Below are positions 8,676-64,000 of a stretch of 64,000 nt of DNA, in pieces. Position numbers and translations under genes: made by a program. Positions within the stretch are counted from its first letter, which is position 1; each line of letters begins with the position of its first letter. Source of the stretch: Chiloscyllium plagiosum (taxonomy: Eukaryota); contig NC_057719.1 in the NCBI RefSeq assembly GCF_004010195.1, positions 1,107,945 to 1,171,944 on the forward strand, written 5' to 3'. The notes beneath the pieces are model-generated. The model did not search any database. It saw only the letters and a list, made by a program, of their open reading frames with translations, and was not told where the DNA came from.

Positions 8676-8721
8676 AATAGATCGAGCGATTCCTTAGAAG
8701 AGTATAAAGGCAGTAGGAGTA

Positions 8722-9031: not shown

Positions 9032-9308
9032 TATATCTCTCCAGACTCTTCCTATTCATATACCCACCCAGATGCCTTTTAAATCTTGCAACTGTACCAG
9101 CCTCCACCACTTCTTCTGGCAGTCCATTCCACACTCATAAAGGCAGTAGGAGAAATCAGGAGGGCTGAAAGAGGACATGAGATAGCTTTGGCAAATAGAG
9201 TTAAGGAAAATCCAAAGGGTTTTTACAAATACATTAAGTATAAAAGAGTAACTAGGAAGAGAATAGGGCCCCTCAAAGATCCGCAGGGCGGCCTTTGTGT
9301 GGAGCCGC

Positions 9309-9549: not shown

Positions 9550-10392
9550 TGACATCTGCTTCCTTCTTTTTCTTAACCAAAACCTCGATTTCTTTAGTCA
9601 TCCGGCATTCCCTATACCTTCCTTTCACCCTAACAGAAATATACTGGTCTGGACTCTCATTATCTCATTTCTGAAGGCTTGCCATTTTCTAGTTGTCCCT
9701 TTACCTGTGAACATCTGCCCCCAATCAGCGTTTGAAAGTTTTTGCCTAATATCGTCAAAATTGGCCTTTCTCCAAATTTTAACTTCAACTTTTAGATCTG
9801 GTCTATCCTTTTCCATCACTATTTTAAAACTAATAGAATTATGGTCACTAGCCCCAAAGTGCTCTCCCACTGACACCTCAGTCACCTGCCCTGCCTTATT
9901 TCGCAAGAGTAGGTCAAGTTTTGCACCTTCTCTAATAGGTACATCCACATACTGAATCTGAAAATGTTCTTCTACATGCTTAACAAATTCCTCTCCATCT
10001 AAACCTGTAACACTATGGCAGTCTCAGTCTATGTTTGGAAAGTTAAAAGCCCCTACCATAACCACCCTATTATTCTTACAGCTAACTGAAATCTCCTTAC
10101 AAATTTGTTTCTCAGTTTCCCTCTGACTATTAGGGGGTCTATAACACAATCCCAATAAGGTGATCATCCCTTTCTTATTTCTTAGTTCCACCCAAATAAC
10201 TTCCCTGGATGTATTTCCTGGAATATCCTCCCTCTGTACAGCTGTAATGCTGTCCCTTACCAAAAACACCACTCCCCCTACTTCTTGCCTCCTTTTTGGT
10301 CCTCCCTGTAGCATTTGTATCCTGGAACATTAAGCTGCCTGTCCTGTCCATCCCTGAGCCATGTTTCTGTAATATCTATGATATCCCAGTCT
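9550..10392 (-). mobile_element. CR1 LINE AP-endonuclease region
   Basis: IWVELRNKKG...YRPPNS...VGAFNFPNID; REGAKLDLLL...EHFGASDHNSISF. Confidence 0.88.
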
Positions 10393-10397
10393 TGTCA

Positions 10398-12612: not shown

Positions 12613-13059
12613 TTGTCTCCTGGTGTGGTGGTCTTGTCCAGGAGGGGTGGTCTCAGCCTGGAGTGACAGTCATGCCCAGCATGGAGGTCTTATTTGGCAG
12701 CTTCTGGGTATTCCAGCAGCTTGATGTGAAGGTGTATTACTAGCGTGATGGTCTCATTCTTGCTTTGCAGGTAATTTCTGGGTTTTCCAATGGCTCACTG
12801 TGGAGGTCTCATCTCAGCATGGTGGGACAGTCCCAACCCAGTGTGGACGTCTTGACCTGGCTCTGCATGGCAGTTTCAGCCTGGTTTTCCAGTGTACCCT
12901 GAACCTAGAACTGTTACTTGAGCTGTGATGAATTTTTACTTATGAATGATTTCTGTGATTAATTTAGGTGCTGTGGTATGGTGAATTATAAAACTTTTTG
13001 TTATCTTTTGTGAAAATACATGTAACAACAAATTATTATTCTGTTTCCTAAATGCCCTC

Positions 13060-36374: not shown

Positions 36375-38414
36375 ATGCCAAGGCTGAGTCACAGTGAGTA
36401 CGTTCTCCAGCAGCTGAACAACCAGAGGGAGTGGGGATTCCTGTGTGACTGCTGCATCATCATTAATGACATCTACTTCCGAGCTCACCGCGCCGTGCTG
36501 ACCGCCTGCAGCTCCTACTTCCGAATGATGTTCATCAGCCAGCAGCTGACGGGGAACCTGAGCCTCAGCAACGTCAACATCAGCGCCGAGTGCTTCGACC
36601 TCATCCTGCAGATCATGTACCTGGGGAGGCTGGTCGGGGTCCCCTCGGACTTTGAGGAGCTGCGATCCGCCATGACCTTCCTGCAGCTCTACTACGTGCC
36701 CAAGAGTCTGGACGAACTGCAGCAGAGCGACGGCAAGGCCGCCCCGTCCCCCCCAGCGGCTGTGGCCCAGCCGAAAGGCGCCATGATGTTCGGGGTACGG
36801 ATGTACGAGGAGCGGCCGGGGGAGCTGGTCAAGAGGAGGCGGCGGGAACCGAGCCCCGAGGTTAACGGCCTCAGCGCTGCCCCCGCAGTTGCGCCACCGC
36901 CGCCTTCCCCCGCCGCCACCGCCACCGCCACCGCCGCCACCGCCGCCGCCACCACCACCATGGAGGCCCCGGCACGGAAGCAGGGTCGCCCGGGCCTAAA
37001 GGGCAGGCTTCACCCCCGCTTCGGCAAGTGCTACACGTGCGACTGCTGCGGCTTCGTCTTCAGCTGCGAGAAGCTGCTCAATGAGCATGCGCTGACCTGC
37101 AACAGCCGGCGCGCGCCTGCGCCCCCTGAGGGGCCGGAGCGCGAGGGCGAACCCGTTAAGGCGGGACCCAGCGGGCGGCCCGGCTCCGCGGAGCCGCCAT
37201 TGGCGCCGCCTGAGGAGAACGGCACGGGGGGCGGCCGCCCGGCGGTGAAGACGGAGCCCGACGACACGGCGGCCGTGGATCTGCACGACATCACCGTGGT
37301 GCAGGTGGCGGACGACGGCGAGCTCGCCTCGGACGACGACGTCGAGGAGAAGGCGCTGGCCTTCGAGGGGGCCGGCGGACTCCGCGGCGGCGGCGGGGGG
37401 CACCGGCCGTCGGAGGGTCACCCCAACTGGGCCGCGGAAGAGGACGAGGAGGAGGAGGACGATGATGAGGAGGAAGAGGAGGAGGAAGGGCGCACCTTGA
37501 AGCTGGAGCCGCAAGAGGGACGAGGCAGCCCGCTGGGGCCGGCCTGTGAGCTCTGCGGCGTGGCACTGCCGGAGAGTGAGCGCGCCGGCCATTATGTGGC
37601 CCACCACGTGGACAGCGTGTGCGCATGCGGCAAGTGTGGCCGCCTCCTGGTGAAGGGTGGCCGCTTGCAGGAGCACGCTGAGCGCTGCCTGGGCGGCCAC
37701 GACGCCCTGTACCCCTGGCAGGCCAGCAGCGGGCAGCCCGTACCCCCATCAACCCCGGCACCCCCGGGCGACTCGCCGCCAGGCCCTCAGCTGGCCAGGT
37801 TCACCTGCCAGGTGTGCGGGGGCAGCTTCAAACAGCGATACCAGCTACAGGAGCACATGTACCGGCACGTCGGCCGCCACTTCCAGTGCTCGCAGTGCGC
37901 CCGGGCCTTCGACCAGGAGAAGCTGTGGGTGGAGCACATTTCCCGCTGCATGTTTGGCCAGGCGCCCCGCGAAACCCCGTCCGAGAGGGTGGACCGGCGG
38001 AAGCACGTGTGTAACCTCTGCGGCAAGGCCTTTTACCAGCGGTGCCACCTGCGAGAGCACTTCACCACCCACACCAAGGAGAAGGAGTTTGCCTGCCAGA
38101 TCTGCGGCAAGGAGTTCCTGCGGGAACGCCTGCTCCGACTGCATTTGGACATGCACCGGGGAGATGCCCGTTATGTCTGCCCCAGGTGTGGCCAGGGCAG
38201 CTACCGCAAGCATGACCACCTGCGCCACATGGTGTCTCATCTGGTGGGCCGAGAGGTCATCTGTGAGGTCTGCTTCCAGGTGTTTGAGGATGGGGAGCTG
38301 CTGGAACGTCACACTGACGTCCACCTTCACACCTGCACCTTGTGTGGGGACAAGTTCAAACTGAAGAAGGAGCTCACTATGCACCATCTAACCAGCCACA
38401 CCAAGAAGCTGTGA
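36375..38414 (+). CDS. ZBTB1: Zinc finger and BTB domain-containing protein 1 (679 aa, single coding exon)
   Basis: Uninterrupted ORF. The N-terminal BTB domain (SHSEYVLQQLNNQREWGFLCDCCI...ISAECFDLILQIMYLG), the MFGVRMYE motif, CDCCGFVFSCEKLLNEH and the C-terminal C2H2 array (HVCNLCGKAFYQRCHLREH, CGKEFLRERLLRLH, RKHDHLRHM) all match vertebrate ZBTB1 as I recall it. GC/CpG-rich compared with the flanks. Confidence 0.95.
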   Translation: MPRLSHSEYVLQQLNNQREWGFLCDCCIIINDIYFRAHRAVLTACSSYFRMMFISQQLTGNLSLSNVNISAECFDLILQIMYLGRLVGVPSDFEELRSAMTFLQLYYVPKSLDELQQSDGKAAPSPPAAVAQPKGAMMFGVRMYEERPGELVKRRRREPSPEVNGLSAAPAVAPPPPSPAATATATAATAAATTTMEAPARKQGRPGLKGRLHPRFGKCYTCDCCGFVFSCEKLLNEHALTCNSRRAPAPPEGPEREGEPVKAGPSGRPGSAEPPLAPPEENGTGGGRPAVKTEPDDTAAVDLHDITVVQVADDGELASDDDVEEKALAFEGAGGLRGGGGGHRPSEGHPNWAAEEDEEEEDDDEEEEEEEGRTLKLEPQEGRGSPLGPACELCGVALPESERAGHYVAHHVDSVCACGKCGRLLVKGGRLQEHAERCLGGHDALYPWQASSGQPVPPSTPAPPGDSPPGPQLARFTCQVCGGSFKQRYQLQEHMYRHVGRHFQCSQCARAFDQEKLWVEHISRCMFGQAPRETPSERVDRRKHVCNLCGKAFYQRCHLREHFTTHTKEKEFACQICGKEFLRERLLRLHLDMHRGDARYVCPRCGQGSYRKHDHLRHMVSHLVGREVICEVCFQVFEDGELLERHTDVHLHTCTLCGDKFKLKKELTMHHLTSHTKKL

Positions 38415-45225: not shown

Positions 45226-46289
45226 GGCTTTCGCTGTCACCAATGCCATCCAAGCTCAGGTCAAGAGGTGTTTAAAGGTACAGAGAGAGAAAAACATAAG
45301 TAGAGAGAGATAAAAGAAGAAACAAAAGAGCCCTATTCTGATGCAATCTAGCTCACAGTCTGAGCTACCAGACCTGCCGGGTTTTGCCAGCAATTTCTAT
45401 TCAGAACTGCAGCATCCACTTATTTAAGTAAAGATAGTATTTCATTGCAGGCAGTTTAGAGGGACTTCACTAAGATGATTCTCTATATGGAGGGATTGTC
45501 TTATGAGCAAAGGTTAAACAGGCTGGGACTCTACTCACTGGAGTTTAGAAGCATGAGAGATAATCTCATTGAAACTTATTGGATTCTTAACCGGCCTGAC
45601 AAGATAAATGCCAAGAGCATGTTTCCTCCCATGCGAGTGTAGTGGACCAAAGGGTGTAGAATAAAGGCGCACCAACTGAAGACTGACATGAGGAGGAATT
45701 TATTCTCATAGTTATACAGCGTAGAAACAGGTTTTTAGCCCACAATATCTTTGCAGACCAAGAAATACCAAATTAATCCCATTTACCTGCACATAGCCAA
45801 CTGTGCACTAACATTTTAAGTGCTCATCAAGATTTTTTAAAAATGTTACGAGAGTACATGCCTCCACCACCCTCTCAGGCACCCTGTGGATGAATTTTTT
45901 TCCTCAAATCTGCTCTAAACCACTTAGTCCTCATCTTAGACTTATGACCTCATTTTAGAGAGATCTAGAACATGGAAAGATTCTCATGATCTATCCTATC
46001 TATGCTTCTCATAATTTTGTAAAACACAATCAGATCCTCTTGCAGCCGTAGCTCCAAGGAAAAGTCTGTCCTCGTAACTGAGACTTTACATCCCAAGCAA
46101 CATCCTGGTGAATCTCCTCTGCACCCGTTCCAATGCAATCACATTCCCTCTGTTTTGGAGGCTTGACTGTCTTTGGAACTCCTTGCTACAAAGAACTATG
46201 GAGGTCGATTCCTTGTGTACATTTAAGGCTCTGCTAGAAAGATTCAGGGAATCATTGGGTAATGGGAAAAGGCTGGAAAGTGGATGTAA

Positions 46290-46620
46290 GGATTCTGGAT
46301 TAGTGGTGCTGGAAGAGCACAGCAGTTCAGGCAGCATCCAAGGAGCTTCGAAATCGACGTTTCGGGCAAAAGCCCTTCATCAGGAATAAAGCATTGTCAA
46401 TCAACCATGACCCTATTGAATGATGCTAGGAGAAAGTGAGGTGCTGGAGATCAGAGTTGAGAGTGTGCTGCTGGAAAAGCACAGCAGGAAAGGCAGCATC
46501 CGAGGAGCAGGAGAATTGACCTTTCAGGCAAGAGCCCTTTGTTAGGCATTCCAAAATGTCGATTCTCCTGTTCCTCGGATGCTGCTGGACCTGCTGGGCT
46601 TTTACAACAACACACTCTAG
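46290..46620. mobile_element. Two Penelope-terminal insertions just upstream of the HSP70 promoter
   Basis: 46293-46390 has an intact minus-strand hammerhead; 46428-46620 is an inverted pair. Confidence 0.8.
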
Positions 46621-46949
46621 AACGTATTGAACGATGCGGCAGGATCGTTTTATGGCGGACAAAGAAAGTACTTGTGACAGTGATTTTAATTTCATGTGAA
46701 TGAACATAAAATGGGATGACCCTATTTAGAATTTTCACAACTTTAAACATCTCCACTCCAAGGCACATAAATATGGGTTTGTTCAAACTTTCCCTTGTAA
46801 GTTAACCTTTGTGATCCAATTCTTCAGGACAGAAGACCTTCAATGTTTTCTTGATAAGTGAGTAAAGGACCTGAAAATAGTCAATAGTTGTAGGGCACTC
46901 TCAGGGTAAGTTGCAATGAACTGCATCATGTGTCCATTTCCCACCTCTA

Positions 46950-47420
46950 CTCCCACGTGGTGCCGTTGTATCCAGTGGCAAATGTAATCATTCAAACTGC
47001 CACCTTCCGCGCTGTCGGCCTCTTCGATTGGGCATCCGTTTGTCCAATCAGATCAGACCCCTTCGGTACTGCCGCACGTGGGCAGGCCCCGCCAAACCGT
47101 CAACTCTGTGCCCACGCCCCCTTCGCCAGCTCCAATAAAACGCGTCCTTTGTTTGGATTGGTCGTTGCCCCCCCACGTGCCGAAGAGCGGTGACGCCAGG
47201 GCTGGAAGATCATTCGTCGCCCATCGGTTGCATCATTGCCCCACGTGCGCGCCGCCGAAACGCGACGCCTGATTGGTTAATGTCCGCTTACGTTATCCCA
47301 CACGTGACAATCAGGAGAAGCGCGGCGTTCCTATTGGCCAGAGGGGTGCGAAGCGGGAAAGCAAAATGGCGGCCCGTTTGTATAAAAGGCTCGAGCAGGG
47401 CAAACGGACAGCTGCCTGTC
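46950..47420 (+). promoter_or_regulatory. HSP70 CpG-island promoter: TATA box, YY1-like site, six CCAAT boxes, five CACGTG E-boxes
   Basis: TATAAAA at 47381-47387; CAAAATGGCGGC at 47362-47373; CCAAT/ATTGG at 47027, 47044, 47132, 47157, 47272, 47333; CACGTG at 46954, 47075, 47174, 47242, 47301. Confidence 0.85.
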
Positions 47421-47454
47421 GCCCTCAGCTTGGTCGTGGCCGTTACCCGGCGTA

Positions 47455-47737
47455 ATGGCGGCCCATTCCCTGGCCGTCGGTATCGACTTGGGCACCACCT
47501 ACTCGTGCGTCGGCGTCTTTCAGCACGGCAAGGTGGAGATCATCGCCAACGACCAGGGGAACCGCACCACCCCTAGCTACGTGGCCTTCACCGACACGGA
47601 GCGGCTGATCGGCGACCCCGCCAAGAACCAGGTGGCCATGAACCCCACCAACACCGTCTTCGACGCCAAGAGGCTCATCGGCCGCAACTTCGACGACACG
47701 ACGGTACAGACCGACATCAAGCACTGGCCCTTTACCG
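47455..47737 (+). CDS. Cytosolic HSP70 (HSPA2/HSC70-like), first coding exon only; no further exon seen in the window
   Basis: [94 protein letters not shown] contains the HSP70 signature IDLGTTYS. Homology ends exactly at a G|GTGAGT donor (GT at 47738, phase 1). Its position after ZBTB1 suggests HSPA2 orthology. Confidence 0.92.
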
Positions 47738-48609
47738 GTGAGTCGGCAGCAGGTGACTGAAAAAGCGGCTTTAGCCAACAACAACCTGCTGCGTTTACAT
47801 CGCGCCTCGGCAAACAATTTTCACTTACACGTCGCTTTACCCTCTCTCCTGTATGGGCATAGTACCTTTTAAAGCCTTTACCAACACCTTGCATTCATAT
47901 AGTGCTTTAAAGGACTAACAACCACGCACATTGATATAGCGCCGAGACGCCCTTAGAACTGCCCGCACTGACCTCGCGCCCTGACCCCCCCCCCCCCAAA
48001 CGCATTGTTCAAACTTCTTGAAAACCTCTCCTCCCCCATTGACATAGCGCCTTTTAAATATTATCAGTCTACATTGATGTAGTACCTTTACATCATAGAA
48101 GTTCTACTTGACACCTAAGTCTGGAAGATATTCAGTTAAATAGCTAAAAGTTTGGTTTAAAGCAGGGCAGGAAGGAGGAATGTGAGGTGAGGACAGTGCA
48201 TGAAGGTTATACCAGAGCTTAGGACCCCAGGCAACTCGGGTCATAGACTCCATTGGACAGTGATGATAATTGGAAATACTCCAGATGGTAGAATTACTGG
48301 AGTGTGGAGATCTGAGGGTTTATTTGATAGAGAGATTAGGAGAGACAGAAGCAGTGGCTGGAAGTGAGAACACAGTTTTTAAAACTGAGAAAATTTGTTG
48401 TTGGACCAGGAGCCTGAATAGACTAGCAGACATAGGGACTGATAAGGTGAACAGGCAGTAGAGGTCTTTTTGAATTTCCACCCATGTCAGAATCCATTCG
48501 GGCTGAACATTAATTTAAAGTTAAAGTATGGCACGGACTTAAGGCTTGTCTGAGACTGCACCAGGAGTATTATGTATGTTTTAAATCTCCTTAACTATGG
48601 AAATATAGA

Positions 48610-49910
48610 CTTAGACAATGGGTGCAGGAGTTGGCCATTCTGCCCCTTGAGTCTGCACCACCATTCAATATGATCATGGCTGATCATCCTTAATCAGTAT
48701 CCTGTTCCTGCCTTATCTCCATAACCCTTGATTCCACTATCCTTGAGAGCTCTATCCAACTCTTTCTTAACTGAATCCAGAGACTGGGCCTCCACTGCCC
48801 TCCTGCGGCAGAGCATTCCACACAGCCACCACTCTCTGGGTGAAGAAGTTTCTCCTCCTCTGTCCTAAATGGTCTACCCCATATTTTTAAGCTGTGTCCT
48901 CTGGTTCGGCACTCACATGTTTCCAGAGTGTCCAATCCTTTAATAATCTTATGTCTCAATCAGATCCTCTCTGTCTTCTAAACTCAAGGGTATACAAGCC
49001 CAGCCGCTCCAGTCTTTCAGCGTAGGGTAGTCCTGCCATTTCACCCTGCCACCCAGCTTAGTATCATCAGCAAATTTGCTAATGTTATTACTAATACCAT
49101 CTTCTATATCATTAACATATATTGTAAAAAGCTGCGGTCCCAGCACTGATCCCTGCGGTACCCCACTGGTCACTGCCTGCCATTCCGAAATGGAGCCATT
49201 TATCATTACTCTTTGTTTCCTATCAGCCAACCAACATTCAATCCAAGTTAGTACTTTGNNNNNNNNNNNNNNNNNNNNNNNNNNNNNNNNNNNNNNNNNN
49301 NNNNNNNNNNNNNNNNNNNNNNNNNNNNNNNNNNNNNNNNNNNNNNNNNNNNNNNNNNNNNNNNNNNNNNNNNNNNNNNNNNNNNNNNNNNNNNNNNNNN
49401 NNNNNNNNNNNNNNNNNNNNNNNNNNNNNNNNNNNNNNNNNNNNNNNNNNNNNNNNNNNNNNNNNNNNNNNNNNNNNNNNNNNNNCACCAATTCCTGGCA
49501 AATATAAATTCCCTTCAGTTCAGGTCTTTCAGCCACTGTTACCTCTGGGAGATTGCTTGTGTCATCCCCAGTGAACACAGCTGAAGTATCAATTCAATTC
49601 TTCTGCCATTTCTTTGTTCCCTGTAATATATTCCCCTGTTTGTCTTCAAGGGCCCAATTTTAGTCTTAACCTTTTTTTTGCCTTTCACATGCCTTTTACT
49701 GTCCTCCTTTATATTATTGGCCTATTTACCTTCGAACCTCATCTTTTTTTTCTGCATATTTCCTTCTTAGTAATCCTCTGGTGTTCTTTAAAAGCTTCCC
49801 AGTCCTCTGTTTTCCCACTTATCTTTGCTGTGTTATACCTTTTTTCTCTTTTAACTTTGTTTCTTAACTTCCCTCGTCAGCCACGGCCACCCATGCCTCC
49901 TCCTAGGACT
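48610..49910 (-). mobile_element. CR1 LINE fragment in the putative HSP70 intron 1
   Basis: VTSGVPQGSVLGPQLFTIYVND...KFADDTKLGG. Confidence 0.88.
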
Positions 49911-50334
49911 TGATCTCATTTTACGTGTATTTTGTTACAAACTAGTAAAGTGTTGTATTCTGTCCAACTTTGGTGTCATCTTAAAACAAAAATAAACCAA
50001 AGCATGAAATATAAAGGCAGAAAAATAAGTTCAATTTTTCAGTCCTTCATGTCAAGTGCTTAGCCATGGGGCTGGAGCGTACAGCCATGGGTCCCCTCGC
50101 TGAATAGCTGGTACAAGACTTGCCACTCTTGGGTCCCATCTCGCATTCCCTGATGTTACCATAAGTCCTCACTGGACCTTGCCAATGCAGTTGCCATCAG
50201 TCCAACACTGCCCCAAACTAGAATCTGTCACCACTGCCAAGCATCTGTTCCAGGTCCACCTTGCTGGAGGTTTGACTGGGTTGAATGGCATATCCCTGTA
50301 ACAATGTACACCCTCTGACTTATTCAGTTAATGG

Positions 50335-50942
50335 TTGGGCAGGTGGACAGGGTAGTGAAAAAGGCATTTGGCATGTTTGCTGTTGTTGATCAGAACATTG
50401 AGTTTAGGAATTGGGAGTCATATTGCAGCTGTACATGACATTGAGGCCATACTTAGAATGCTGTGTACAATCCTGGTTGCCTTTCTACAGGAAGGATGTT
50501 GTTAAATTTGAAATGGTGCCGAAAAGAATTTTGCCAGGACTGGAGCATTTGAGTTATAAGGAATGGTTGAATAGGCTGGGGTACTTTCTGTGGTGCTTTG
50601 GAAGCTGAGGGATGACCTTATCGAGCTTTAAATCATGAGTGAATAGACAGTCTCTTTCCTAGTATGGGGGAGTCCAAAACTGGAGAATATGGGTTTAGGT
50701 CAGATGGGAAAGATATTAAAGGGACCTGAGGGACAACCTTTTTTATGTAGAAGGTGGTATGTAGGGAATGAACTACCAGAGGAATTCATGAAGGTAGGTA
50801 CAATTGTAATGTTTGAAAGGCATCCAGATGGGTACAGGAATAGAAAGGTTTAGAGGGATATGGGACTAGGTAAGATTGGGACGTCTGGTCAGCATAGATG
50901 AGTTGGACTGAAGGGTCTGTTTTGTGCTGACTCAATGACTCT
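50335..50942 (+). mobile_element. CR1 3' end
   Basis: QLYMTLRPYLECCVQSW...LNRLG; tail. Confidence 0.8.
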
Positions 50943-51554
50943 TTTTAAAATGCATGTCTCTTTGGTGGTATTATGAAAAATGTAGCTGACCACTTGCTGA
51001 GATACTTCAGGGAAAGGTGGTGGCTTGGTAATGTCCTAGGACTATAATCCAAAACTCCAGGTTAATTCTCAAGCATAAGGTGACATTTAAATTCAATTTT
51101 AAAAAGCTGGGAATAGAAAGCTAGCACTATGCTGACCATGTACCCATAGTGGGTTGTCATTAAAAAGTCATCTGCTTCACAAATGTCCTTTTTTTTTAGG
51201 GAAGGAAATCTCCCAATATTGCTTGGTCTGGTCAACATGTGACTCCAGAACCACAGCAATGCACTTGACTTGCAATTGCCCTCTGGCAATGAATACTGAC
51301 CTAGCCAGTGACACCATCGTTCTGAGAACGTATAATTTCTTAATTCCTGACACTAAACTGAGCTTCTGAAGCCTGATCAATGATTTTTCTTAGATGGCTA
51401 ACTTGGTGTCAAGCTTTTATGGAGGGGCAAGTAGCCATCTCTTCAAGGGCTGCCCTTTTTCCCTTGCAGTTGCTCCATGGAGTTTGAGGTGAATGAAGTG
51501 GTAAAGCACTCTGGACTGCCAGAGCGCATGTGTCGTGAAATCCAGTGATTCTGT

Positions 51555-53367
51555 AAAGAGAGTAGGGGCACACTTAAGAGAAATCAGAATGGCAAAAAGG
51601 TGATATGAGATGATCTTGGCAGATAAGGTTACGAATAATCCAAAAAGATTCTACAAGTACATTAAGGGCAACGAGAGAGAATGGGGCCCTTTTAAAGGTC
51701 AACAAAGCTGTCCTGTGTGGAACCACAGATGAGTGTGATACTAAACAAATATTTAGCCTCAGCTGTACTGTGGCAGAAGACACAGAAGTGAGTGCCAAGA
51801 AATAAATCTGATGAAAACCGTCCACATTATGGAAATGTTGGAGATTTTAAAAAGCAGAAGGGCCCTGTCAGATATTTGCATCACCCACAGACACGGGTGA
51901 GGTGCTAGAAGATTGGAAGGTGGTTAATGTTGTTTATTTAAGAAAAGTTGCAAGGAAAAGCCAGGGATCTATAGATTGGAGTCTGATATCAGTAGTGGGT
52001 AAGTTGTTGGAAAGGTTTGCATGGATTTGGAGAGGCAAAGACTGATTCGGGGCAGTCAGCATAGCTTTCTAAGTGGGGAATTGTGTCTCACTAACTTGAT
52101 TGCACTTTTGAGGATTCTCCTGATTCTCTGATAGAACATAAAACAGTGCGGCACAGTACAGGCCCTTCGACCTTCTGTTGTGCCGAAGATCAGACTAACT
52201 GACATTCCCTTCGTCTTACTATCATCCATAAGTCGCTTAAATATCTCTAATGTAGCTGACTCTACTACCATTGCTGGCAGTGCATTCCACACACCTCACT
52301 CACTATGTAAATAACCTATCTACCCCAGGTTGTCATTTATCTGAATGACTTTATAATAACTGGGAAGACCAAAAAAGACCTCTTCCATAAACATTCCTCC
52401 AATCACCTTAAAATGATGTCCCTTGTGTTAGACACTTCTGCCATGGGAAGTCTCTGGCTATCCACTCTCTAACTATGCCTCACTTCATCATAGAATCCCT
52501 ACAATGTGGAAACCGGCCACTAAGCCCAACAATTCCATACTGACTCTGAGTAACCCACCCAGACCCAATCCCCTCTTATTCTACACTTACCCCTAATGCA
52601 CCTAACTTACACAACCCTGAATACTATGGGCAATTTAGCGTGGCCAATTCACCTAACGTGCACATCTTTGGATTGTGGGAGTAGACCAGAGCAAACCCAT
52701 GCAGACATGTGGAGAATGTGCAAACTCCACACAGTCACCCGAGGCTGGAATCGAACCAGGGTCCCTGGTGCTGAGGCTGCATGGCTAATCACTGAGCCCC
52801 CATGCTGCCCTTGTATAGCTTGTACACCTTTATCAAGTCATATATCATCAGGATGCTGCCTAACCTGCTGTGCTTTTCCAGTGCCACACTTTCTTTTTGA
52901 CTTTTGAGGATGTGATCAAAATAGATGATGGCAGAGCATTAGGTGTTGTCTACGTGGACTTTAGCAAGACCTTTTGACAAGGTTCTGAGTGGTAGACTGG
53001 TTAATAAAATTAGATCACCTGGGATCTTGGGGGCCAGCCAATCAGCAAAAAATTACTTTGAAGGTAGGTGACAGGTGATGGAGAATTTTTATTTCAGACT
53101 GGAGGCCTGTGACCAGAAGTGTTCCACAGGAATCAGTGCTGGGTCTGCTTTTGCCAATTATATAAACTGTTTGGATGAGAATATAGGCAGCATAGTTTCT
53201 AAGTATGTGGAGGACACCAAAAATAGTACAGTGAAGAAGGTTATCTCCAGGTACAACAGGATTTTGATTAGCTGGGCTAATGGGCTGAGGAGTGCCAGAT
53301 GGAGTTCATTTCAGATAAATGCAAAGTGTTAGATTTTGGTAAGTAACGGTAGGACCCTGGGGAGTGT
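51555..53367 (+). mobile_element. CR1 ORF2 fragment (resumes at ~59975-60320 after the Gypsy element), with a nested minus CR1 tail and HE1 SINE (52488-52809)
   Basis: NPKRFYKYI, QHSFLSGELCLTNLI, YVDFSK. Confidence 0.75.
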
Positions 53368-53465
53368 TGTAGTTTTTGGCAGATTGCATTGACTGAGATC
53401 ATTGGCCCAGTTAACAAACCCAATCAATCAGGGAGCCCTGGGCAATTACATATAACCGGGATGTT

Positions 53466-53855
53466 AGCTGTCCTCAGCGCTGTCACCCCGGGCAGGTACC
53501 GGGGCGGGCTGCCCCAGAGGTGGTCGAAAGGTGCTGAGGGTGGTTAGTGAAGCCGGAAGGTGGGTAGGCTGTCCTGACTGCTGTCACCCTGGGCGGGTAC
53601 CGGGGCGGGCTGTCCTAGAGGTGGTCGAAAGGTGTGTCAGGGCAGACGAGCCAGAAGGCACGTAGGGGCGGGCTGAGATCCGGAAGGCTTGTGGGCTACC
53701 CTACACGCTGTCGTCCCAGGGATTCGACGTTTCGGGCGCATGCCCTTCTTCTTTGCTGCTCCTCTCCCTTGTAAAATTGCTGTCTCTTGTATGTAGCTAT
53801 AAATGTAACTGTTTGTTGTAAACTGTTTTTGTAATTTGTTTAATAAAATAAAAAA
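53466..53855 (+). mobile_element. Poly(A)-tailed, structured GC-rich retroposed insert in the 5' LTR
   Basis: 16-bp TSD ATATAACCGGGATGTT at 53450 and 53856; AATAAA plus A tail; internal 101-bp duplication. Confidence 0.85.
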
Positions 53856-53871
53856 ATATAACCGGGATGTT

Positions 53872-54095
53872 GGCACCGCAGGGAGTGGAGTGTCTTATTT
53901 CCCCTTCCAACTCTTTTTGATTTTAATCCCTGCCCTCCCCTCCCCTCCACTTTTTGATTACTCAGCATTGCCCTTTCTCAAAGGGGCACTGCTTGTCACT
54001 GGCTATTCATATGTTTCCATTCTTCCTGGTGGTGGAATATAAATATAGATTTAAACACTTGTTGTTTTCACTGTGGGGGGAACAAAAAGTAAATG
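53872..54095 (+). mobile_element. Tx1-clade L1 3' tail in the 5' LTR
   Basis: GCACCGCAGGGAGTGGAGTGTCTTATTTCCCCTTCCAACTC followed by the family 3' UTR. Confidence 0.8.
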
Positions 54096-56118
54096 GAACA
54101 TTCAGAATCTCCACTTGAAGGACTGACTCTGAGCTGGCTGGCCACACCTGGTGTACTGTGCACATGTAAATTAAGGGGACGACTTCAGTTCCAGCCTCCT
54201 ATGAGAAGCAGTTGGTACAGTTACCACAGATAGTAAAAGGCTTAGGCCCAAGCCTATTGGGGTAGAATTGGTTGAGAAAGATTCACCTAGATTAGCTCAA
54301 CACTGATTTGAAAATTGGCTGCCTCAGTGAAGTCCTCATGAAATACCCAGGGGTTTTCAGGAGGGGCTAGGAACTTTCAAAGGGGCCAAAGCCACTTGAC
54401 CTGTTAACCAAGAAGCAATTCAATTTTTTTGCAGGGCCCGCCATGTGCCATTTACCTTGCAAACAAAAGTAGAGGCAGAAATCAGGAGGCTGGAGAGCGG
54501 AAAAAAAATCATCAGTGCAATTTGCTAAATGGGCAGCACTGGTTGTACCAATTGTGAAGCCTGACAGCTCAGTTCACCTTTGAGGATTTTACAACCTTTG
54601 GCAACTGGATAAATGCAAAAGTGGTGGTGGGGGACTGCCCTTCACAAAGCTGGACATGAGACATGCCTACCTGCAATTATGAAATGTGGAGTTGCAGAAG
54701 TATGCCACAATTAATACCCACAACTGTTTGTATTAATATGAACCTGCCATTTTTGGGATATTATCAGCCTACATGCTTTTCCACAGAAATTTTGCAAGGG
54801 CTACCTCAGGTTGTCATTTATCTGAATGACTTGTTAATAACTGGGAAGACCAATAAAGAGAACTTGAAGAGTTTGGACATAATACTTAAATGTTTCACCA
54901 AGGCAGATGTATGTCTTAGAAGGGAAAAATGTGTTTCTGGTGCCCCAAGTAACCTGCTGGGTTACAGACTGGGTTAAGGGTGATCAAAGGTGCTTGGCTC
55001 CCACATCTGTACTGGAGCTTGGGGTTTTTTGGGTTAGTGAATTATTACAGGAAATTCATATGCAACCTGACTTCCATCTTGGCACCTTAACACCGGCTAT
55101 TGGAAAAAGTGTTAACTTTGGAAATGACTATGTTGCCAAGAAATAGCCTTTAGGAAAGTGTAAAAGCAACTATTGTCCTCTAAGGTGTTGGTCCACTATC
55201 CTCTGAAATGAGGCAGTGTTGACATGCAATGCTTTCCATACTGAATCTGGGTAGCATTGGCTCAGCTGTAGTCCAATGGAGAGGAATGCCCAATAGTGTA
55301 TGCTGCTTGGATTTTGGCTGGTGCTGAATGCACATACACCCAGATAGAGAAGGAAAGTTTCACTGTCAACTTTATGGAAGTTCACCCAATACATTATGGA
55401 TGTGAATTTGTCATAGTCACAGATCACAAACCCCTGCTAGGGCTACTTAAGGAAGACAAGGCAGTGCTGCCCATAGCTTCAAGTTGAAATCAGTGGTGCC
55501 TCTTATTTTCAGTGCGTGCAAGTAAGAACACTGTCTAGGAAGCCAAGTGGCTAATGCAGATGCCTTGAACTGCCTCTCTCTAGCAGATATTGCACCAACA
55601 GTGCCCCACCAGAAGAATCCATTCTGATTTAAACTTTATGGGCACCCTTCCTGTCGTCTCTAACAATATTCAACTGGCCGCAATGACATCCTGTCCTGGC
55701 AAAATTAAAACTGCTGGTGATAATGGGGAAGCAGAAGGGCCATCACAACCAGCAGTGAAACCTTTCTGGACCCAGTGAGACCAGATCACCATGAAGGATG
55801 GCATATTACTATGGGGAGCAAGTGTGATTGTCCTGAGCAAAGATCACTGCCAGATACTGACTGAACTCCATCATGGTCACCCAGAAGCTTCCAGAATGAA
55901 GATGTTGGGAAAACGTTGTCTGGTTGGATGCCAACATAGCTGCATTGGTGGGGCAGTGCCCAAAGACTGAAATTGACCCCACTGGCCTACATCCCCCAGA
56001 TTTGGTAGGGGAGGGATATAGTGATTGGAACCAGGTGGATTTCATTGACTGATCCTTGATTGGGGTTGCTCACCTGGGCCAATCAGGGAATCCTGGGCAA
56101 TGTGAATATTCTGTTTAT

Positions 56119-56389
56119 GTGGGTGGCACAGTGGTTAGCACTGCTGCCTCACAGCGCCAGAGACCCGGGTTCAATTCCAGCCTCGGGCGACTGACTGTGT
56201 GGAGTTTGCACATTCTCCCCGTGTCTGCATGGGCTTCCTCCCACAGTCTAAAGATATGCAGGTCAGGTGAATTGGCCATGCTAAATTGCCCGTAGTGTTA
56301 GGTTAGGGGTATAGGTGGGTTGCGCTTCGGCGGGTCGGTGTGGACTTGTTGGGCCGAAGGGCCTGTTTCCACACTGCTACGTAATCTAA
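56119..56389 (+). mobile_element. HE1-type V-SINE in the 3' LTR
   Basis: A box TGGCACAGTGG, B box GGGTTCAATTCC (56167-56178), V-SINE core, CR1-like tail. Confidence 0.88.
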
Positions 56390-56429
56390 AGTGAAGAGTT
56401 TGAGGTTTAAAAAAAAAAATTCTGTTTAT

Positions 56430-58140
56430 GGCCAACTGGCAGGAGCTGGAGGCCAAAGTCTCAGCTCGCCTAGGCCGCTGGACAGGACTGCTCCGAGTGC
56501 TATCTTACAGGAGGCGAGTGCTGGTCATAAACCAGCTGGTGGCCGCCATGCTGTGGTACCGGCTGGTCACTTTGGTCCCTCCTCCTGGCTTTGTCGCTGA
56601 CATCAAGAGAATGTTGGTCGATTTTCTTCTGGGACAAAAAGATGCACTGGGTCGCCGCGCAGGTTCTGAGTCTCCCTATTGAGGAGGGCGGTCAGTCGCT
56701 GGTATGCGTCCGCACCCAGGTCGTGACGTTCCGCCTTCAGACCTTACGGCGATACCTTTACGTCGAGCCTCCTCCTACGTGGTGCGCCCTGGCGACGTAT
56801 TTTTTCCGCCATGTGCGTAACCTCAACTACGACACGCAGCTCCTGTTCGTCGACCGTGACGGTTTGGAGGTCGCCTTCAAGACGCTGCCCGTCTTTTACC
56901 AGGACCTGATCACTGTCAGGAACATGGTCGAATCGCGTCGCGCCTACCCTCCGGCTGAAGTAGTGGCTGTCGTCAGGAAGCCGTTGCTCAGGAATCCGGA
57001 CCGCCCTACTCGCGGGTTCGAGTGGCTGTCGGAGGGGAGGGCCATGGCGGCGAGGGCGACCATGGTCGGGGATGTGCCGGGGGCCTGGGCTGGACGCTAC
57101 CGCAGGACATAGCGAGCAGGGCAGCGGTAGACATCCGGTACGTAGCCACCACCATCCGACGCCTTAAAACGGCGGTGCTTGGACCCGACGTAGTGCACCA
57201 GTTGGAGGACGCTCAGGTGTGCCAGTGGAGGGCTCTCTACGCGGGAGTCCTCCCCCTTTTCTCTTGGGGATCTGGGGTGGAGTGTGCTGCACACAGCAGT
57301 CCCCTGCAACCGCAGATTGCGGTGGTTCACGGACTCCCAGCCCAACTGCTTGTTCTGTGGAATCCATGGACCACATGTATATTGGGTGTGGGTGTTTGCA
57401 CTCCCTTTTTGATTTTCTGAAAAATCTCCTCCTCTGCTTTTGGTTGCACTTCTGTCGCATGCTCCTGATCTTTGGGCACCCGGTACGGAGGAAGGAGGGC
57501 AGGTCTGAAGACCTCCTCGTTGGTCTGCTTCTGGGCCTGGCCAAACTGGCCATTAACAGGTCCAGGCAATGGGCCGTGGAGGGGGTCGTTAGGGCCGACT
57601 GCCTGCCCCTCTTCCGCGGTTACGTTAGAGCCCGGGTGTCCTTGGAGACGGAGCACGCAGTGTCCACCAACACCCTGGAGTCGTTCAGGGACAGGTGGAC
57701 GCCGCAGCGAGTGGAGTGCATTATTTCCCCCTCCAACTCTATTTTGATTCAGTCCCTACCCTCCCCTTCACTGTTTTGATCACACAGCACTGCCCTTTGA
57801 TGTGAAGGACAGTGTTTGTCACTGGCCACCCGAGTGTTTTCCTATCTTCCTGGTGGTGGAAATTGAATAAAAAATTCGTGCACTTTGTGTCTTTCATTGT
57901 GTCTCACACTTGTGCACACACACACACCATGGGTGCTGGGGGAATAAATAAGCACTACTGCACTTAGGTGGTAGTGTGGGGGGAAAAAGAAAAAAAAAAC
58001 AGTAAATAGAGCACTACAGCAGTTAGGCGGTAGTGTGGGAAAAAGAATAAAGAGCACTGTAGTAAAAAAAAAGGAGTTAAAAAAAATAAATAAGCACATA
58101 GGGTTCTATTCACTCTGAGAGCTGGAGAAGAGAAAAAAAA
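56430..58140 (+). mobile_element. Tx1-clade L1, 5'-truncated copy 1
   Basis: ORF2 C-terminal half (NWQELEAKV...RVLVINQLVAAMLWYRL, C..C...H....C knuckle), frameshifted, with a ~250-bp internal deletion; 3' UTR with duplicated tail. Confidence 0.9.
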
Positions 58141-58149
58141 ATTCTGTTT

Positions 58150-59780
58150 ATGGCCAACTGGCAGGAGCTGGAGGCCAAAGACTCGGCTCACCTAGGCCAC
58201 TGGACAGGACTGCTCCGAGTGCTATCTTACAGGAGGCGAGTGCTGGTCATAAACCAGCTGGTGGCCGCCATGCTGTGGTACCGGCTGGTCACTTTGGTCC
58301 CTCCTCCTGGCTTTGTCGCTGACATCCAGAGAACGTTGGTCGATTTCTTCTGGGACAAAAAGATGCACTGGGTCGCCGCGCAGGTTCTGAGTCTCCCTAT
58401 TGAGGAGGGCGGTCAGTCGCTGGTGTGCGTCTGCACCCAGGTCGTGACGTACCGCCTTCAGACCTTGCAGCGATACCTTTATGTCGAGCCTCCTCCTACG
58501 TGGTGCGCCCTGGCGACGTATTTTTCCCGCCAGGTGCGTAATCTCAACTACGACACGCAGCTCCTGTTCGTCGACCGTGACGGTTTGGAGGTCTCCCTCA
58601 AGACGCTGCCTGTCTTTTACCAGGACCTGATCACTGTTTGGAACATGGTCAAATTGCGTCGCGCCTACCCTCCGGCTGGAGTAGCGGCTGTCGTCAGGGA
58701 GCAGTTGCTCAGGAATCCGCAACTCCATACTCGCGGGTTCAAGTGGCTGTCGGAGGGGAGGGCCGTGGCGGCGAGGGCGACCATGGTCGGGGATGTGCTG
58801 GGTGCCGGGGTCCTGGGCTGGACACTGCCGCAGGACAAAGCGAGCAGGGCTGCGGTAGACGTCCGGTACGTGGCCACCGCCATCCGACGCCTTAAAACGG
58901 TGGTGCTCGGACCCGACGTAGTACACCAGTTGGAGGACGCTCAGGTGTGCGGTGGGATCCCGTCCGCGCTCACCCCAGCCCGGACGGAATTTCACATTGG
59001 CCCCAAGGTCCCGTACTTCCCGCGGGAGCCTGTGCCCCACAACCTGAGCCGCCTCCGAAATTTTAACTTTGTTTCGTTTAGGGAGGTGAACAGGAGAGCC
59101 CTGTACAGACTGCTGCTGCACACCGTCCACCTCTTCTCCCTCACCCACCGTCCGGACACGCCTTGGCGTCCCCATTTGCCACCGGGCGGTGGGGATCCCC
59201 AGTGGAGGGCTCTCTACGCAGGAGACCTCCCCCTTTCTCTCGGGGATCTGGGGTGGAGGGTGCTGCACGCAGCAGCCCCCTGCAACCGCAGATTGCGGTG
59301 GTTCACGGACTCCCAGCCCAACTGCTGGTTCTGTGGCGCTGTGGAGTCCGTGGACCACGTGTATATTGGGTGTGGGCGTTTGCACTCCCTTTTTGATTTT
59401 CTGAAAAACCTTCTCCTCTGCTTTTGGCTGCACTTCAGTCCCACGCTCCTGATCTTTGGGCACCCGGTACGGAGGAAGGAGGGCAGGTCTGAAGACCTCC
59501 TCGTGGGCCTGCGCATTATTTCCCCCTCCAACTCTATTTTGATTTAGACCCTACCCTCCCCTTCACTGTTTTGATCACACAGCATTGCCTTTTGTGAAGG
59601 GCACTGCTTGTCACTGGCCACTCGGGTGTTTTCCTGTCTTCCTGGTGGTGGAAACTGAATAAAGATTTGTGCACCCTTGTGTCTACACCTACACACACAC
59701 ACACACCATGGGTGCTGGGGAAAAAATAAGCACTACCGCAGTTAGGCGGTAGTGTGGGGGCATTAAAAGAAAAAAAAATA
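58150..59780 (+). mobile_element. Tx1-clade L1, 5'-truncated copy 2 (465-aa open ORF2 C-terminal fragment)
   Basis: Same 5' truncation point as copy 1; CWFCGAVESVDHVYIGC zinc knuckle; in-frame ~190-bp deletion near the C-terminus; poly(A). Confidence 0.92.
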
Positions 59781-60649
59781 AACAGGAGATTTCCCCCTCC
59801 AACTCTTAAAAAAACAGGAGTGTCATTGCCCTTTGACTTAAAAAAAAATATTCTGTTTATACCTCAAACTCCTCACTTGAGGGACTGACTTCTACATGGC
59901 TGTGTACTTTGTGCATGTAAATAAAGGGTTACTTGGCAATTGGATACCAACATCATGCAGTTATATCTGTTTTTGAAACAAATTTCGGGTGCATGGCTCC
60001 TTCAAAGTGATAGGTAGACCAGCGTGGTGAAGGCATTTGTGTGTGTCTGGTTGCCTTGCTGTATGACAGCTATTAAATTGGAAAGTCTGCGAAAGTATGG
60101 CTCAGGCATTGAGGAGAGGCTGGATAGGCTGGAACTGTTTTCCCTGGAGCATAGGATGTTGAGGAGTCATCTTTTTGTAGAGGTTTATACATTTAATTAG
60201 GGGTGTAGGTAAGGTAAATAGCAAAGGTCTTTCCACTTAGGATAGTGGGGAATTCAAAACTGGAGGGCATAATTTTAAGTCAGAGAGGCAAATATTAAAA
60301 GGAATGTAAGGAAGTGTTTCAGTGTCTGAAGCTACTCCTGCTGAATATGATTCTCTACAACAAGAGCACAAAGTACATTACACCGTATTCAACTATTGAT
60401 TCTTGGTCCAACTTCCTACACAATTTTATCAGGCATCTTATGGCATGGTAACATTCCAATGATATTGCACCTTTTAACTGGTATTCTGAGCTTGAAAGTA
60501 CATGTCATAACATGATCATACTTTCTCTCTCTTCTCCCAACCCAATGCTTTCCTTGCTTCCAGAAACCGTTTATGCTAAGTTGAATACTTGATTAGCACT
60601 CAACCTCTTGGACAAAAGTTAAACCTTTTTAAATTTCCTTTCACAAAGA

Positions 60650-62190
60650 AACAGTACAGAAAAGACCCTTTGGCCAAAAGTCTGTATTGACAAAAACTTC
60701 TCTAAATCTACACTAATCCCACGTTCCAGTACTTGAATGTTTGTAGCATTTCAAGTTTTTAAAGTGAGGTTTCCTGCCTCAAGCACTCTTCCAGAAGTGC
60801 ATTCCAGATTCACACCACCCTTTTATTTAAAAAATCCTCAGAAACACTTGAAATCTCCTGTCTTTCACTTTAAAACTAGGCCTGTTTGTGATTTACTGTT
60901 CATCTAAGGGAGCAGCTGCTTTCTATCCACCCTACCAATGACCCTCATAACCTTTATATGCCTTAATCAGATAACCCCTCAACCTTCTCTACTGTAAACA
61001 AAACAACCTGAGTTCGTCCTCCTCTCTTCTATGTTCTTCATGGCTAAACTAAAGCAACCTGAGCAGCTTCTGCAATTCAATAACAAATTACAAGGTCTCC
61101 ATCATAATGAAACTGAATCTGAGTTGGTGCCCTACTTCCATACAATGACATTCAGCACCAAGGAGAGCTGAACCTATGTGGAACCAGAAATGTAAAATCC
61201 CTTCATTCCACACAACATCCTGGTAAATCTCCTCCACTCCCTCCAGTGCAATCATCCTGCTTATAGTGCAGAGTCCAGAATTGCACACAGTACTCCACCT
61301 ATGACCTAACCAAATTTTAGTACAGCTCCAACATGACCACCCTGCTGTTAATTTAGTCTGCACTAAAACTGATGAAAGCAAATGTCCGGTATGCCTTCTT
61401 AGCTACCCTATTAACCTGTCCTGCTACTTTCAGGGATCTCTGGATAAGCATCCCAAGATCCCTCTGTTCCTCAGAATTTCCTAGTGTGCTGCCATTCATT
61501 GAGTACACTCTTGTTGTTTTTTCCAAAAGTACTTCATTTCAATTTTATCACAGTAAAATTCCATCTGACCAATTCATTGCATCCTCCTGTAACCTAAGAC
61601 CTCTTTTCCTTGCTGTCAACTCCCAGCCAATCTTCGTGTCATCTGCAAACTTGCTTATCATTCCCCTGATCGCCAATTTTAAAAAATATATATCACAAAC
61701 GTAGAGGATGCAGCACTGATCCTTGTGATGCACCACGGGACAGCAGCCACCAGTCACAGTCTTCTTTCAACACCTTCCATCTCTTCCCACAAGGTCAATT
61801 TTGGATCCAGCCTGTCAAGTTATCCCAGATCCCATGTGCTTTTACCTTCTTTATCCATCTCCAAAGTGGAACATTTATCAAAAACTTGGATGAAATCCAG
61901 ATAAACTACATTAACTGCAGTACCCTCATCTAGACATCTGGTCACCTCAAATTTAAATCAAATTTGTTAGGCATGGCTTCCCTCTGACAAAGCCATACTG
62001 ATTATCCCTGCTGAAAGTGAAATTAAGATTCTCTCCTTCAGAATTTTCTCCAATAATTTCCCTACCACTGAGACTCATTTGTCTATGTTGGGTTATCTCT
62101 ATCTTGTTGTTTCACTTGTTAAAAACAAAAAAAAATCAGCTGTCCTCCAGTCCTCTGACACCTCTCCTGTGGCCAGAAATGAATTAAGAA
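60650..62190 (-). mobile_element. Old CR1 LINE fragment
   Basis: MISKFADDTKIG; LYKIWLGHRW; CR1 tail. Confidence 0.75.
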
Positions 62191-62932
62191 TTGGATCAGA
62201 GCCACTGTAATTTCCTTCCTCATCTCCCACAGCAGACTGGGATGCAACTGATCCAGACCTGGATCACAGCCAAGACCACAGTCAATCCTCCTCTTCCCTC
62301 CTTGTTTTTCTTCCGTTGTCCATCTGCTTCCACTGTCCTCTCCAATTCACTTGCTCAGTTTTTCTTTCCCTTCTCCCTCAGCAATTTTAGGTTGTCTGCT
62401 GAAGTTATGAACACACTGCGATCAAAGGATAGTGATCCTTGATGAATTGCTGTGGTGCATCTAATACACAGCTGCATGGAGTACGAATCAAGCTACTTTC
62501 TTTTGGATGGTATCAAGCTTCTTGAGTGTTGTTGGAGCTGCACTTATCCAGACAAGTGGGGAGTATTCCATTGCACTCTTGACTTGTGGTTGCAGATGGT
62601 GGACTGGAGTTGAGCGTGTTCCAAATCCACAAATCCTACCTCTAAAAGGACAAGGGCAGCAGATGCATTGGAACATCATCATCTGCAAGTTCTCTTCCAA
62701 GGCGCACACCATCCTGATTAGAAATATATTGGTATTTCTTCAGTGTTGCTGGAGCAAATTCCTGGACCTCCCTCCTTAAACACAGTGGCTGTATCTATAG
62801 TGGATCACTAAGGCATCTCACCATCATCTTCTCCAAGGCAATTGTGAATTGACAGTAAATGTTGGCCTAGCCTATGATGCTTAAGTGAACCATATAACGC
62901 AAAGCAGGGCAGATCATGTCTTACTAACTGGA

Positions 62933-63133
62933 TTTTTCAAGGAGGTGGTGAAGATGCTCGATGAGGGTAGAGCCGTGGATGTTACTTTGGTGAAAATTTT
63001 GAAATTGTGTATGTAAAGATATGGTTAAGTTTTTTCAAGGAGGTGGTGAAGATGCTCGATGAGGGTAGAGCCGTGGATGTTACTTTGGTGAAAATTTTGA
63101 AATTGTGTATGTAAAGATATGGTTAAGTTTTTT
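62933..63133. repeat. Perfect 98-bp tandem duplication
   Basis: TTTTTCAAGGAGGTGGTGAAGATG...GATATGGTTAAG occurs twice with period 98. Confidence 0.95.
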
Positions 63134-63689
63134 TTTCTTTGATCTTGGCCTCCACTCAGTATTTGGATATAGGAACTATAACATTAAAATTAATTTATGC
63201 AACACACAAGGATTTTGAGTCTATAAGGAATTTAGCTAGATGCAAACACTTTGGTCACATATACAGTTTTAATATGGAGCTATAAGGTGATGCACACTGG
63301 AGGGTCTTAAAACTGGAATGAAACTTTAGGCCAACAGCCAGATGCTAAAGGTTGTGTACAAATTGAAAGATCTGCGTACAAATAAATAATTCCCTAAAAG
63401 AGTAAATGCTGTTATAAAAGATCCGAAGAGATTTGTCAGATGTGGATTGAATGAGTAAAAGGACTCTTCTTCACTGGCTGTTTTAAAAAAAACACAAGGT
63501 AGACCAGCCACTGAGAAATGAAGAAAAAAGATGACTTTTCTTATGTACAGAGTTCTTAGATGGGATGCTTTGAGACAATCTATTTGGAATAGGCTGTTCT
63601 TTCAAGGAGAAAATGTTCTAGTATTTAAAACTGACAATGAAGTATATAGGATGGTGAGATTCATTTTGGATTGCAGAAAGAGCTTTAAC

Positions 63690-64000
63690 ACAATTGGCCA
63701 AATTTCATTAGGCATGAGTGGGGAGTGCTAACTGGACAGAGCTGTTAGCAGGTAACTCCACATTTGACATGGAATTGTTTAAAGGCGATCAGAATTCAGG
63801 ACCGGCATGCTCCAGTAAGGAGGAAGGACAAGGATGGGGGCTAAGGTAAGGGACCTTTGGACAACGAGGGAGACTGTGAACTTAGTCAAAAGGAAAAAAA
63901 GTACATGTAAGGTTTAGGAAGCTCAAATTGAACTGGGCCTGTGAGGAATATAAAGAAAGTGGAAAAAAAACTTGGGCAGAGAATTAGGAGAGCAAGAATG
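63690..64000 (+). mobile_element. CR1 ORF2 fragment running off the window end
   Basis: Reads NWTELLAG...WELFK...IQDRHAPVR..PW..RE..NLVKRKK, homologous to 6600-6800 on the opposite strand. Confidence 0.65.

Follow-up and report, generated by a model that had tools for sequence, protein, structure and literature searches.

A 64,000-nucleotide stretch of the genome of the bamboo shark Chiloscyllium plagiosum (assembly GCF_004010195.1, contig NC_057719.1, positions 1,107,945 to 1,171,944 of the forward strand; in the following, the window) contains the first coding exon of an orthologue of the tetrapod HSP70 gene HSPA2. HSPA2 of human, mouse, rat, and chicken possesses one coding exon (PMC2266713, PMC4326386, PMC12872099; the chicken table of the latter mislabels lengths, and its exon count alone was used), whereas in the shark gene an intron of 16 kb or more interrupts the coding region at c.283. 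The presence of a coding intron in this HSPA2 orthologue is real; splicing at c.283 is predicted from the sequence. We consider it reasonably probable that the gene is an HSPA8-derived retrogene that is older than the split of sharks and bony fishes and gained the c.283 intron in the cartilaginous fishes. Gain of the intron is favoured over its retention. In the literature searched, most subscription journals lying outside the search, no description of shark HSPA2 or of its introns was found. The words intron, shark, and HSPA2 do not appear in a paper on HSP70 evolution (PMC8423806), and the main text of bioRxiv 10.1101/2022.09.06.506793 counts the HSP70s of the elephant shark without naming orthologues or introns. 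PMC9221867 and PMC13083884 contributed nothing further. NCBI annotates the genes as 'HSPA2-like', so that the structure is on the database record though undiscussed.

The start codon is located at position 47455, and the HSP70 coding sequence extends to 47737 on the forward strand (exon 1, 47455..47737; 94 codons plus the first base of Val95). The encoded residues 1-94 (47455-47736) are 100% identical to those of XP_072423942.1 from Chiloscyllium punctatum and to those of the C. plagiosum model; an older C. punctatum model differs in one residue. Exon 1 ends after Thr94 at the junction ACCG/GTGAGT, which corresponds to c.283 and phase 1, with the 5' splice donor GTGAGT at 47738..47743 on the same strand. 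Only this one of the five GT dinucleotides in 47691-47800 is compatible with the sequence Thr94-Val95. The terminal G of the exon is the first base of Val95, and the database protein runs on with Val95-Ile-Asn. A first-pass annotation of this DNA had placed the end of the HSP70 homology at precisely this donor and phase, which is confirmed. It had also found no second exon in the remaining 16 kb, and the same result was obtained here: a tblastn search of the window with three full-length HSP70s yielded exon 1 alone (next best match, E 0.85), and when each of the 1,016 readable AG sites in 47738-64000 was examined as an acceptor that would lead in phase 1 into residues 95-106, none scored higher than 15 out of 61. 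Intron 1 (47738..64000, forward strand) is open at the window end, and its 16,263 nucleotides are a lower bound on the length, the acceptor and exon 2 lying outside the window. This bound holds unless exon 2 sits in an assembly gap of 227 N (49259..49485, unreadable letters) within a LINE-like (long interspersed nuclear element) fragment of the intron. Both flanks of the gap translate as LINE-type reverse transcriptase, presumably of the CR1 family.

An assembly error, with a misjoin or a truncated piece of the gene and an incidental GT, is extremely unlikely. The lack of exon 2 in the window and an N gap 1.5 kb past the donor would fit such an error. However, the homology ends exactly at a consensus donor and in the phase required for Val95, the sequence is gap-free from the promoter to 49258, and CpG-rich sequence extends past the donor. 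Full-length proteins are moreover modelled in two Chiloscyllium species and three assemblies, and a skate isoform is joined at the same codon. The database protein of 640 residues (P0016) matches PF00012 over residues 7-609 (E 2e-257) and has the C-terminus GPTIEEVD; the window holds residues 1-94 alone, and the result for the whole domain was obtained with the database protein. Relatives are found in at least 12 sharks, at least nine rays, and the chimaera Callorhinchus milii, 15 of the main cluster's 17 members being among those listed. The full-domain protein and its relatives in 22 species remove, for the gene as such, the reading as a truncated pseudogene devoid of downstream exons, which the first-pass annotation had named as a possible refutation. 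The gene is whole in the annotated Chiloscyllium assemblies. At residues 94/95 the alignment contains no gap relative to HSPA2 or HSC70, and no residues are missing.

The identity of the gene was assessed by means of two phylogenetic trees, the rows of which were hand-picked from search matches. In a tree of 43 proteins (LG+C20+F+G4), 14 chondrichthyan proteins join ten tetrapod HSPA2 sequences with a support of 99/97. The same grouping (99/98) resulted from a tree of 31 proteins (LG+G4), in which shark HSC71, tetrapod HSPA8, and an HSPA1-type model of the whale shark, the last by its N-terminal half, were also represented; shark HSC71 and the whale-shark half fall outside the HSPA2 clade. Tetrapod HSPA2 is the sister clade of the chondrichthyan proteins in both trees, and the shark protein is 83% identical to human HSPA2. 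In approximately unbiased (AU) tests, a clade with HSPA8 is rejected at p 0.017 and one with shark HSC71 alone at p 1e-5. The genomic neighbourhood agrees: the coding exon of ZBTB1 (36375..38414, forward strand, stop at 38414) lies 9 kb upstream of the HSP70 exon on the same strand. It encodes BTB and C2H2 zinc-finger domains (Pfam BTB, zf-C2H2) and is 40% identical to ZBTB1 of Orcinus (E 2e-180). A RefSeq model of the zebra shark Stegostoma (P0125, 1005 residues), in which the first ~370 residues of ZBTB1 are fused to an HSPA2-type HSP70, is probably an annotation or assembly artefact and indicates that ZBTB1 and HSP70 are neighbours there too. ZBTB1 and HSPA2 are on the same strand in mammals. 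For mouse, the listed order is Zbtb25, Zbtb1, Hspa2, Plekhg3, with unnamed RIKEN loci between them (PMC4420501 Table 1). By trees and ZBTB1 adjacency, the gene is assigned as the orthologue of HSPA2 (human 14q23.3; also HSP70-2), which bears out the identity proposed in the first-pass annotation.

A separate cytosolic HSP70 lineage, for example of the HSPA1 type, which occupies the same locus and has its own intron history, is very unlikely. Such a lineage would be compatible with the AU test, which does not reject a grouping with HSPA1-type genes (p 0.135), with the NCBI names, which are merely 'HSPA2-like', 'HSC71-like' or 'HSP70-like', and with the downstream neighbour PPP1R36, which was not found within the window (mammalian query, best E 0.07; the HSP70 gene is still unfinished at 64000). 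It is opposed by the grouping in the two trees, by the adjacency to ZBTB1 in two sharks, by the placement of the whale-shark HSPA1-type protein elsewhere in the tree, and by a promoter without a heat-shock element, as expected of HSPA2.

The origin of HSPA2 has been placed in early tetrapods (PMC2266713), and PMC8646100 reports no HSPA2 in the teleosts and the gar surveyed and calls the gene a gain of higher vertebrates. The presence of an orthologue in sharks, rays, and chimaera, as judged by tree and synteny, makes it likely that HSPA2 predates the jawed-vertebrate split, and with it the origin in tetrapods that the literature assigns to the gene. HSPA2 was likely lost in the ray-finned fishes surveyed. 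Among the search matches used for the trees, no HSPA2 of bichir, gar, coelacanth, or lungfish turned up. A cytosolic HSP70 of hagfish that bears the name HSPA2 in its source (among P0186, P0240, and P0261) falls outside the jawed-vertebrate HSPA2 in both trees; in a hagfish HSC70 (P0244), an insertion coincides with the c.1120 intron site of HSPA8.

The position of the intron was compared with those of other HSP70 genes. HSPA8 (HSC70), which is presumed to be the parent of HSPA2 (PMC2266713), resembles the shark gene in being cytosolic, in the terminal EEVD, in ~82% identity, and in possessing coding introns. However, the seven coding introns of human HSPA8 (PMC2266713 Figure S1) map to shark c.208, 414, 567, 1123, ~1326, 1525, and 1758, none of which equals c.283. 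The codon of Asp70 (HSPA8 Asp69), which holds the first of these sites, is uninterrupted in shark exon 1, as the first-pass annotation had noted. A common clade with HSPA8 is moreover rejected by the AU test, and sharks possess a separate HSC71. A neighbouring site exists in HSPA5 (BiP), an intron of which lies between Lys118 and Val119 in phase 0 and aligns to HSPA8 Met93/Val94 (PMC2266713 Figure S1). It maps to shark c.282, one nucleotide from c.283 and in a different phase. The site also occurs in STCH (HSPA13) and in HSPA14 (PMC2266713); these are, with HSPA5, distant endoplasmic reticulum (ER) or atypical subfamilies. The first-pass annotation had reasoned that a c.283 site already shared by a known vertebrate HSP70 subfamily would speak against a novel intron. 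The site is not one of HSPA8; its proximity to the intron of HSPA5, HSPA13, and HSPA14 had been overlooked.

This proximity raises the question of a relic, namely that the ancestor of HSPA2 retained the ancient intron before this Val, phase 0 in the human genes HSPA5, HSPA13, and HSPA14 and following the motif Phe-x, and that this intron then shifted by a single base. In that case, HSPA2 would not be a clean retrocopy; it would have originated, before the jawed-vertebrate split, from a cytosolic HSP70 with introns arranged differently from those of HSPA8 and would have become intronless later in bony vertebrates. The site is common to three deep subfamilies, and sliding by one base is the only kind of intron sliding with statistical support, albeit in less than 5% of introns (PMC3488318). 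We nevertheless regard both the survival of the old intron and such a descent of HSPA2 as quite improbable: HSPA8, the closest intron-bearing paralogue, has no site at c.282/283, the shark gene lacks the more 5' intron of HSPA8, and no cytosolic HSP70 with an intron at a c.282/283-type site was found in the literature searched. Convergent insertion at or near the intron sites of paralogues has furthermore been documented in fish (PMC12357937). A conversion from HSPA5 is unlikely because exon 1 is HSPA2-like and not BiP-like.

Evidence on the age of the intron comes from rays. In isoform XP_078263101.1 of the skate Rhinoraja longicauda, the sequence from Val95 onwards is identical to that of the main isoform, and nine unrelated residues directly precede this Val. 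This suggests an alternative first exon that is spliced to the same acceptor, and an intron common to sharks and rays is therefore likely on the basis of this gene model. Isoform X2 of Narcine starts at Met123, the first Met past the junction, as would fit a break at this codon. When 180 proteins were screened for a break at this position, the skate isoform and one garbled teleost model alone showed one. The framing of the first-pass annotation, lineage-specific gain or retained ancestral structure, is upheld; a narrowly lineage-specific intron is not, as the skate model implies the same junction. An unlikely course of events is that the intron was gained in the stem of the jawed vertebrates and later lost, in which case the intronless HSPA2 of mammals and birds would be secondary. 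Known intron states are limited to elasmobranchs (the window and the skate model) and amniotes, which leaves room for this sequence of events, and a germ-line-expressed gene would be a plausible target of cDNA-mediated intron loss. However, stem gain plus loss requires two events instead of one, and the junction signature was seen in none of the non-chondrichthyan proteins among the 180 screened, apart from the garbled model, in what is a weak test.

The proposed gain in cartilaginous fishes can be outlined as follows. Human HSPA2, with its single coding exon, is held to be retroposed from HSPA8 (PMC2266713, PMC4326386). An HSPA8-type mRNA would have been retroposed beside ZBTB1 before the cartilaginous and bony vertebrates split, and the copy would have been kept as HSPA2 without coding introns in tetrapods, its absence being reported for teleosts and gar. 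A spliceosomal intron would then have been inserted into the codon of Val95 before the split of sharks and rays without loss of coding residues; here the position was observed in the window, and the shared origin is deduced from the skate model. The intron would subsequently have been enlarged by the insertion of retroelements, which are seen in the window. The spliced mRNA is expected to code for an ordinary chaperone of 640 residues ending in EEVD, with CCAAT- and E-box factors and not the heat-shock factor as predicted drivers. A cDNA from which the c.208 intron had been removed would also have passed c.283, and the c.283 intron is thus most simply explained as younger than the retroposition. 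As no residues are missing at 94/95, an insertion is suggested and not an intronisation of coding sequence as in RNF113B.

Several points weigh against this scenario. The acceptor and exon 2 lie outside the window, and the junction rests on database gene models. The branch of the gain is not fixed, as intron states are known for elasmobranchs and amniotes only. The sharing with rays depends on one predicted isoform (one of 180 proteins screened, plus one garbled model), which gives the codon and not the phase. The trees contain neither an HSPA2 of ray-finned non-teleost or lobe-finned fishes nor a full-length shark HSPA1-type protein, and the AU test leaves a grouping with HSPA1-type genes unrejected. 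Position c.283 is one nucleotide from the ancient HSPA5/HSPA13/HSPA14 site; the chance that a new intron falls within one nucleotide of any of the 14 sites of HSPA8 and HSPA5 is ~2%, or 5% if HSPA9 is counted, a post hoc calculation. Finally, the elephant shark shows fewer intron changes than any bony vertebrate (PMC3964593). With the fewest changes among jawed vertebrates in the chimaera lineage, the prior for a gain is low, and a gain is surprising.

Other vertebrate genes provide partial parallels. The retrogenes RNF113B and DCAF12L2 (PMC3002245) are likewise retrocopies that acquired an intron. They are, however, young genes of mammals whose introns arose from exon sequence, whereas in the shark gene no residues are missing at the junction, conservation of the region is high, and the event dates far back. 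New coding introns, some of them at or near the sites of paralogues, also arose in teleost slc26a1/a2 (PMC12357937). In this case the lineage is that of ray-finned fishes with a high intron turnover, in contrast to the conservative cartilaginous fishes (PMC12357937, PMC3964593).

Two statements in the literature consulted would need correcting, namely that HSPA2 is tetrapod-specific (PMC2266713, PMC8646100) and that it is a single-coding-exon retrocopy. Shark HSPA2 is predicted to be spliced inside its strongly conserved ATPase domain, and the cartilaginous fishes are the vertebrates for which the least intron change is reported. The locus offers a clean and cheap test case for intron gain versus loss or sliding in an old retrogene. 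If the intron were a relic, HSPA2 could no longer be regarded as a retrocopy of HSPA8 that arose in tetrapods.

The region upstream of exon 1 contains a putative promoter with CACGTG, CCAAT, and TATA boxes (46954..47387, forward strand). The sequence TATAAAA at 47381 lies 74 bp 5' of the ATG, as stated in the first-pass annotation; human HSPA2 also has a TATA-proximal start near the ATG, with the transcription start 109 bp upstream (PMC4326386). Five CACGTG boxes (46954, 47075, 47174, 47242, 47301) are present in 46900-47454, compared to a shuffle mean of 0.2, and none of 1000 shuffles reached five. They are located within 350 bp (46954-47306), make up five of the 13 boxes of the whole window, and are interleaved with CCAAT boxes. 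The latter number six in 46900-47454 (shuffle mean 1.6; as many in two of 1000 shuffles). The ratio of observed to expected CpG is 1.08 across 47001-48000. No three-unit heat-shock element with at most one mismatch was detected in 45401-47455, and ER-stress elements (ERSE, ERSE-II) were not found in the promoter. CACGTG includes the core RCGTG. The heat-shock element is absent in both tetrapod and shark HSPA2, and E-box or hypoxia-response-type sites are present in both genes, which in each case follow ZBTB1. Heat does not induce human HSPA2, which is under the control of HIF-1 via a hypoxia response element (PMC6882751). Expression that is testis-enriched and does not respond to heat is predicted for the shark gene. 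On the basis of these motifs, a mode of control shared by shark and human HSPA2 is plausible, and the promoter is a candidate for control by HIF, USF or MYC together with NF-Y. In view of its intron of 16 kb or more and the lack of heat-shock elements in its promoter, the gene should presumably not be mistaken for the inducible hsp70 in stress studies of sharks.

The interior of intron 1 is full of decayed retroelements. Repeats that are present elsewhere in the window cover 40% of it, and a Pfam scan of the open reading frames of at least 60 residues overlapping 47800-64000 (27 of 96) gave retroelement domains alone at E<0.003, including an RT-RNaseH domain at 55272-55484 (E 1.6e-8). Three weak Pfam matches (E 0.008-0.05) were regarded as chance. 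The segment 54200-56000 is a decayed pol fragment of a long terminal repeat (LTR) retrotransposon with reverse transcriptase and RNase H. At 56420-59740, two adjoining CpG-rich, 5'-truncated copies of a non-LTR retrotransposon look recently inserted; a 481-residue open frame within them (58102-59547) contains a zf-RVT domain (Pfam, 58102-59544). A direct duplication of ~100 bp by the window end (62918-63130) could stem from local tandem repetition or from misassembly. The first-pass annotation had singled out the length of the intron as unusual. This point was dropped: sharks generally have long, repeat-filled introns, and intron elongation driven by repeats is general in them (bioRxiv 10.1101/2025.06.08.657570). 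What is unusual in intron 1 is its position and not its length.

The database proteins show further peculiarities downstream of the window. In the C-terminal tail (P0016 residues 610-616), the shark protein and its chondrichthyan relatives contain a Cys-Pro-Cys motif in place of the Gly-rich linker of other cytosolic HSP70s; variants are Cys-Gly-Cys in chimaera and Cys-Ala-Cys in Heptranchias, and a motif of this type is not seen in tetrapod HSPA2. Within residues 570-589, the same 19 residues are absent, with a hybrid Lys at the join, from models of C. plagiosum (P0127), Hemiscyllium (P0133), and Stegostoma (isoform X2, P0128). This may reflect a 57-nucleotide exitron or a further phase-1 intron with an alternative splice site (c.1708 or c.1765; HSPA8 has an intron at neither position), so that c.283 may not be the only new intron of the gene. 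Isoform X2 of Carcharodon (P0123) lacks residues 467-615, and the short isoform of human HSPA8 lacks about 464-617. The Carcharodon deletion may reflect exon skipping between two more introns; as the two deletions nearly match, however, the model may instead be homology-driven, and it was set aside as proof of such introns. A search for short C-terminal fragments that could mark exon ends gave, among the best 120 of 214 matches, none of the HSPA2-type subfamily.

Two observations concern neither the gene nor its intron. Cetacean ZBTB1 proteins fall in the mammalian HSPA2 protein cluster. A long minisatellite at 7300-7500, 8660-9050, and 10330-12690, the minus strand of which is open in several frames as 'HHTGRPSHWETITLGD'-type repeats, is likely a non-coding satellite.

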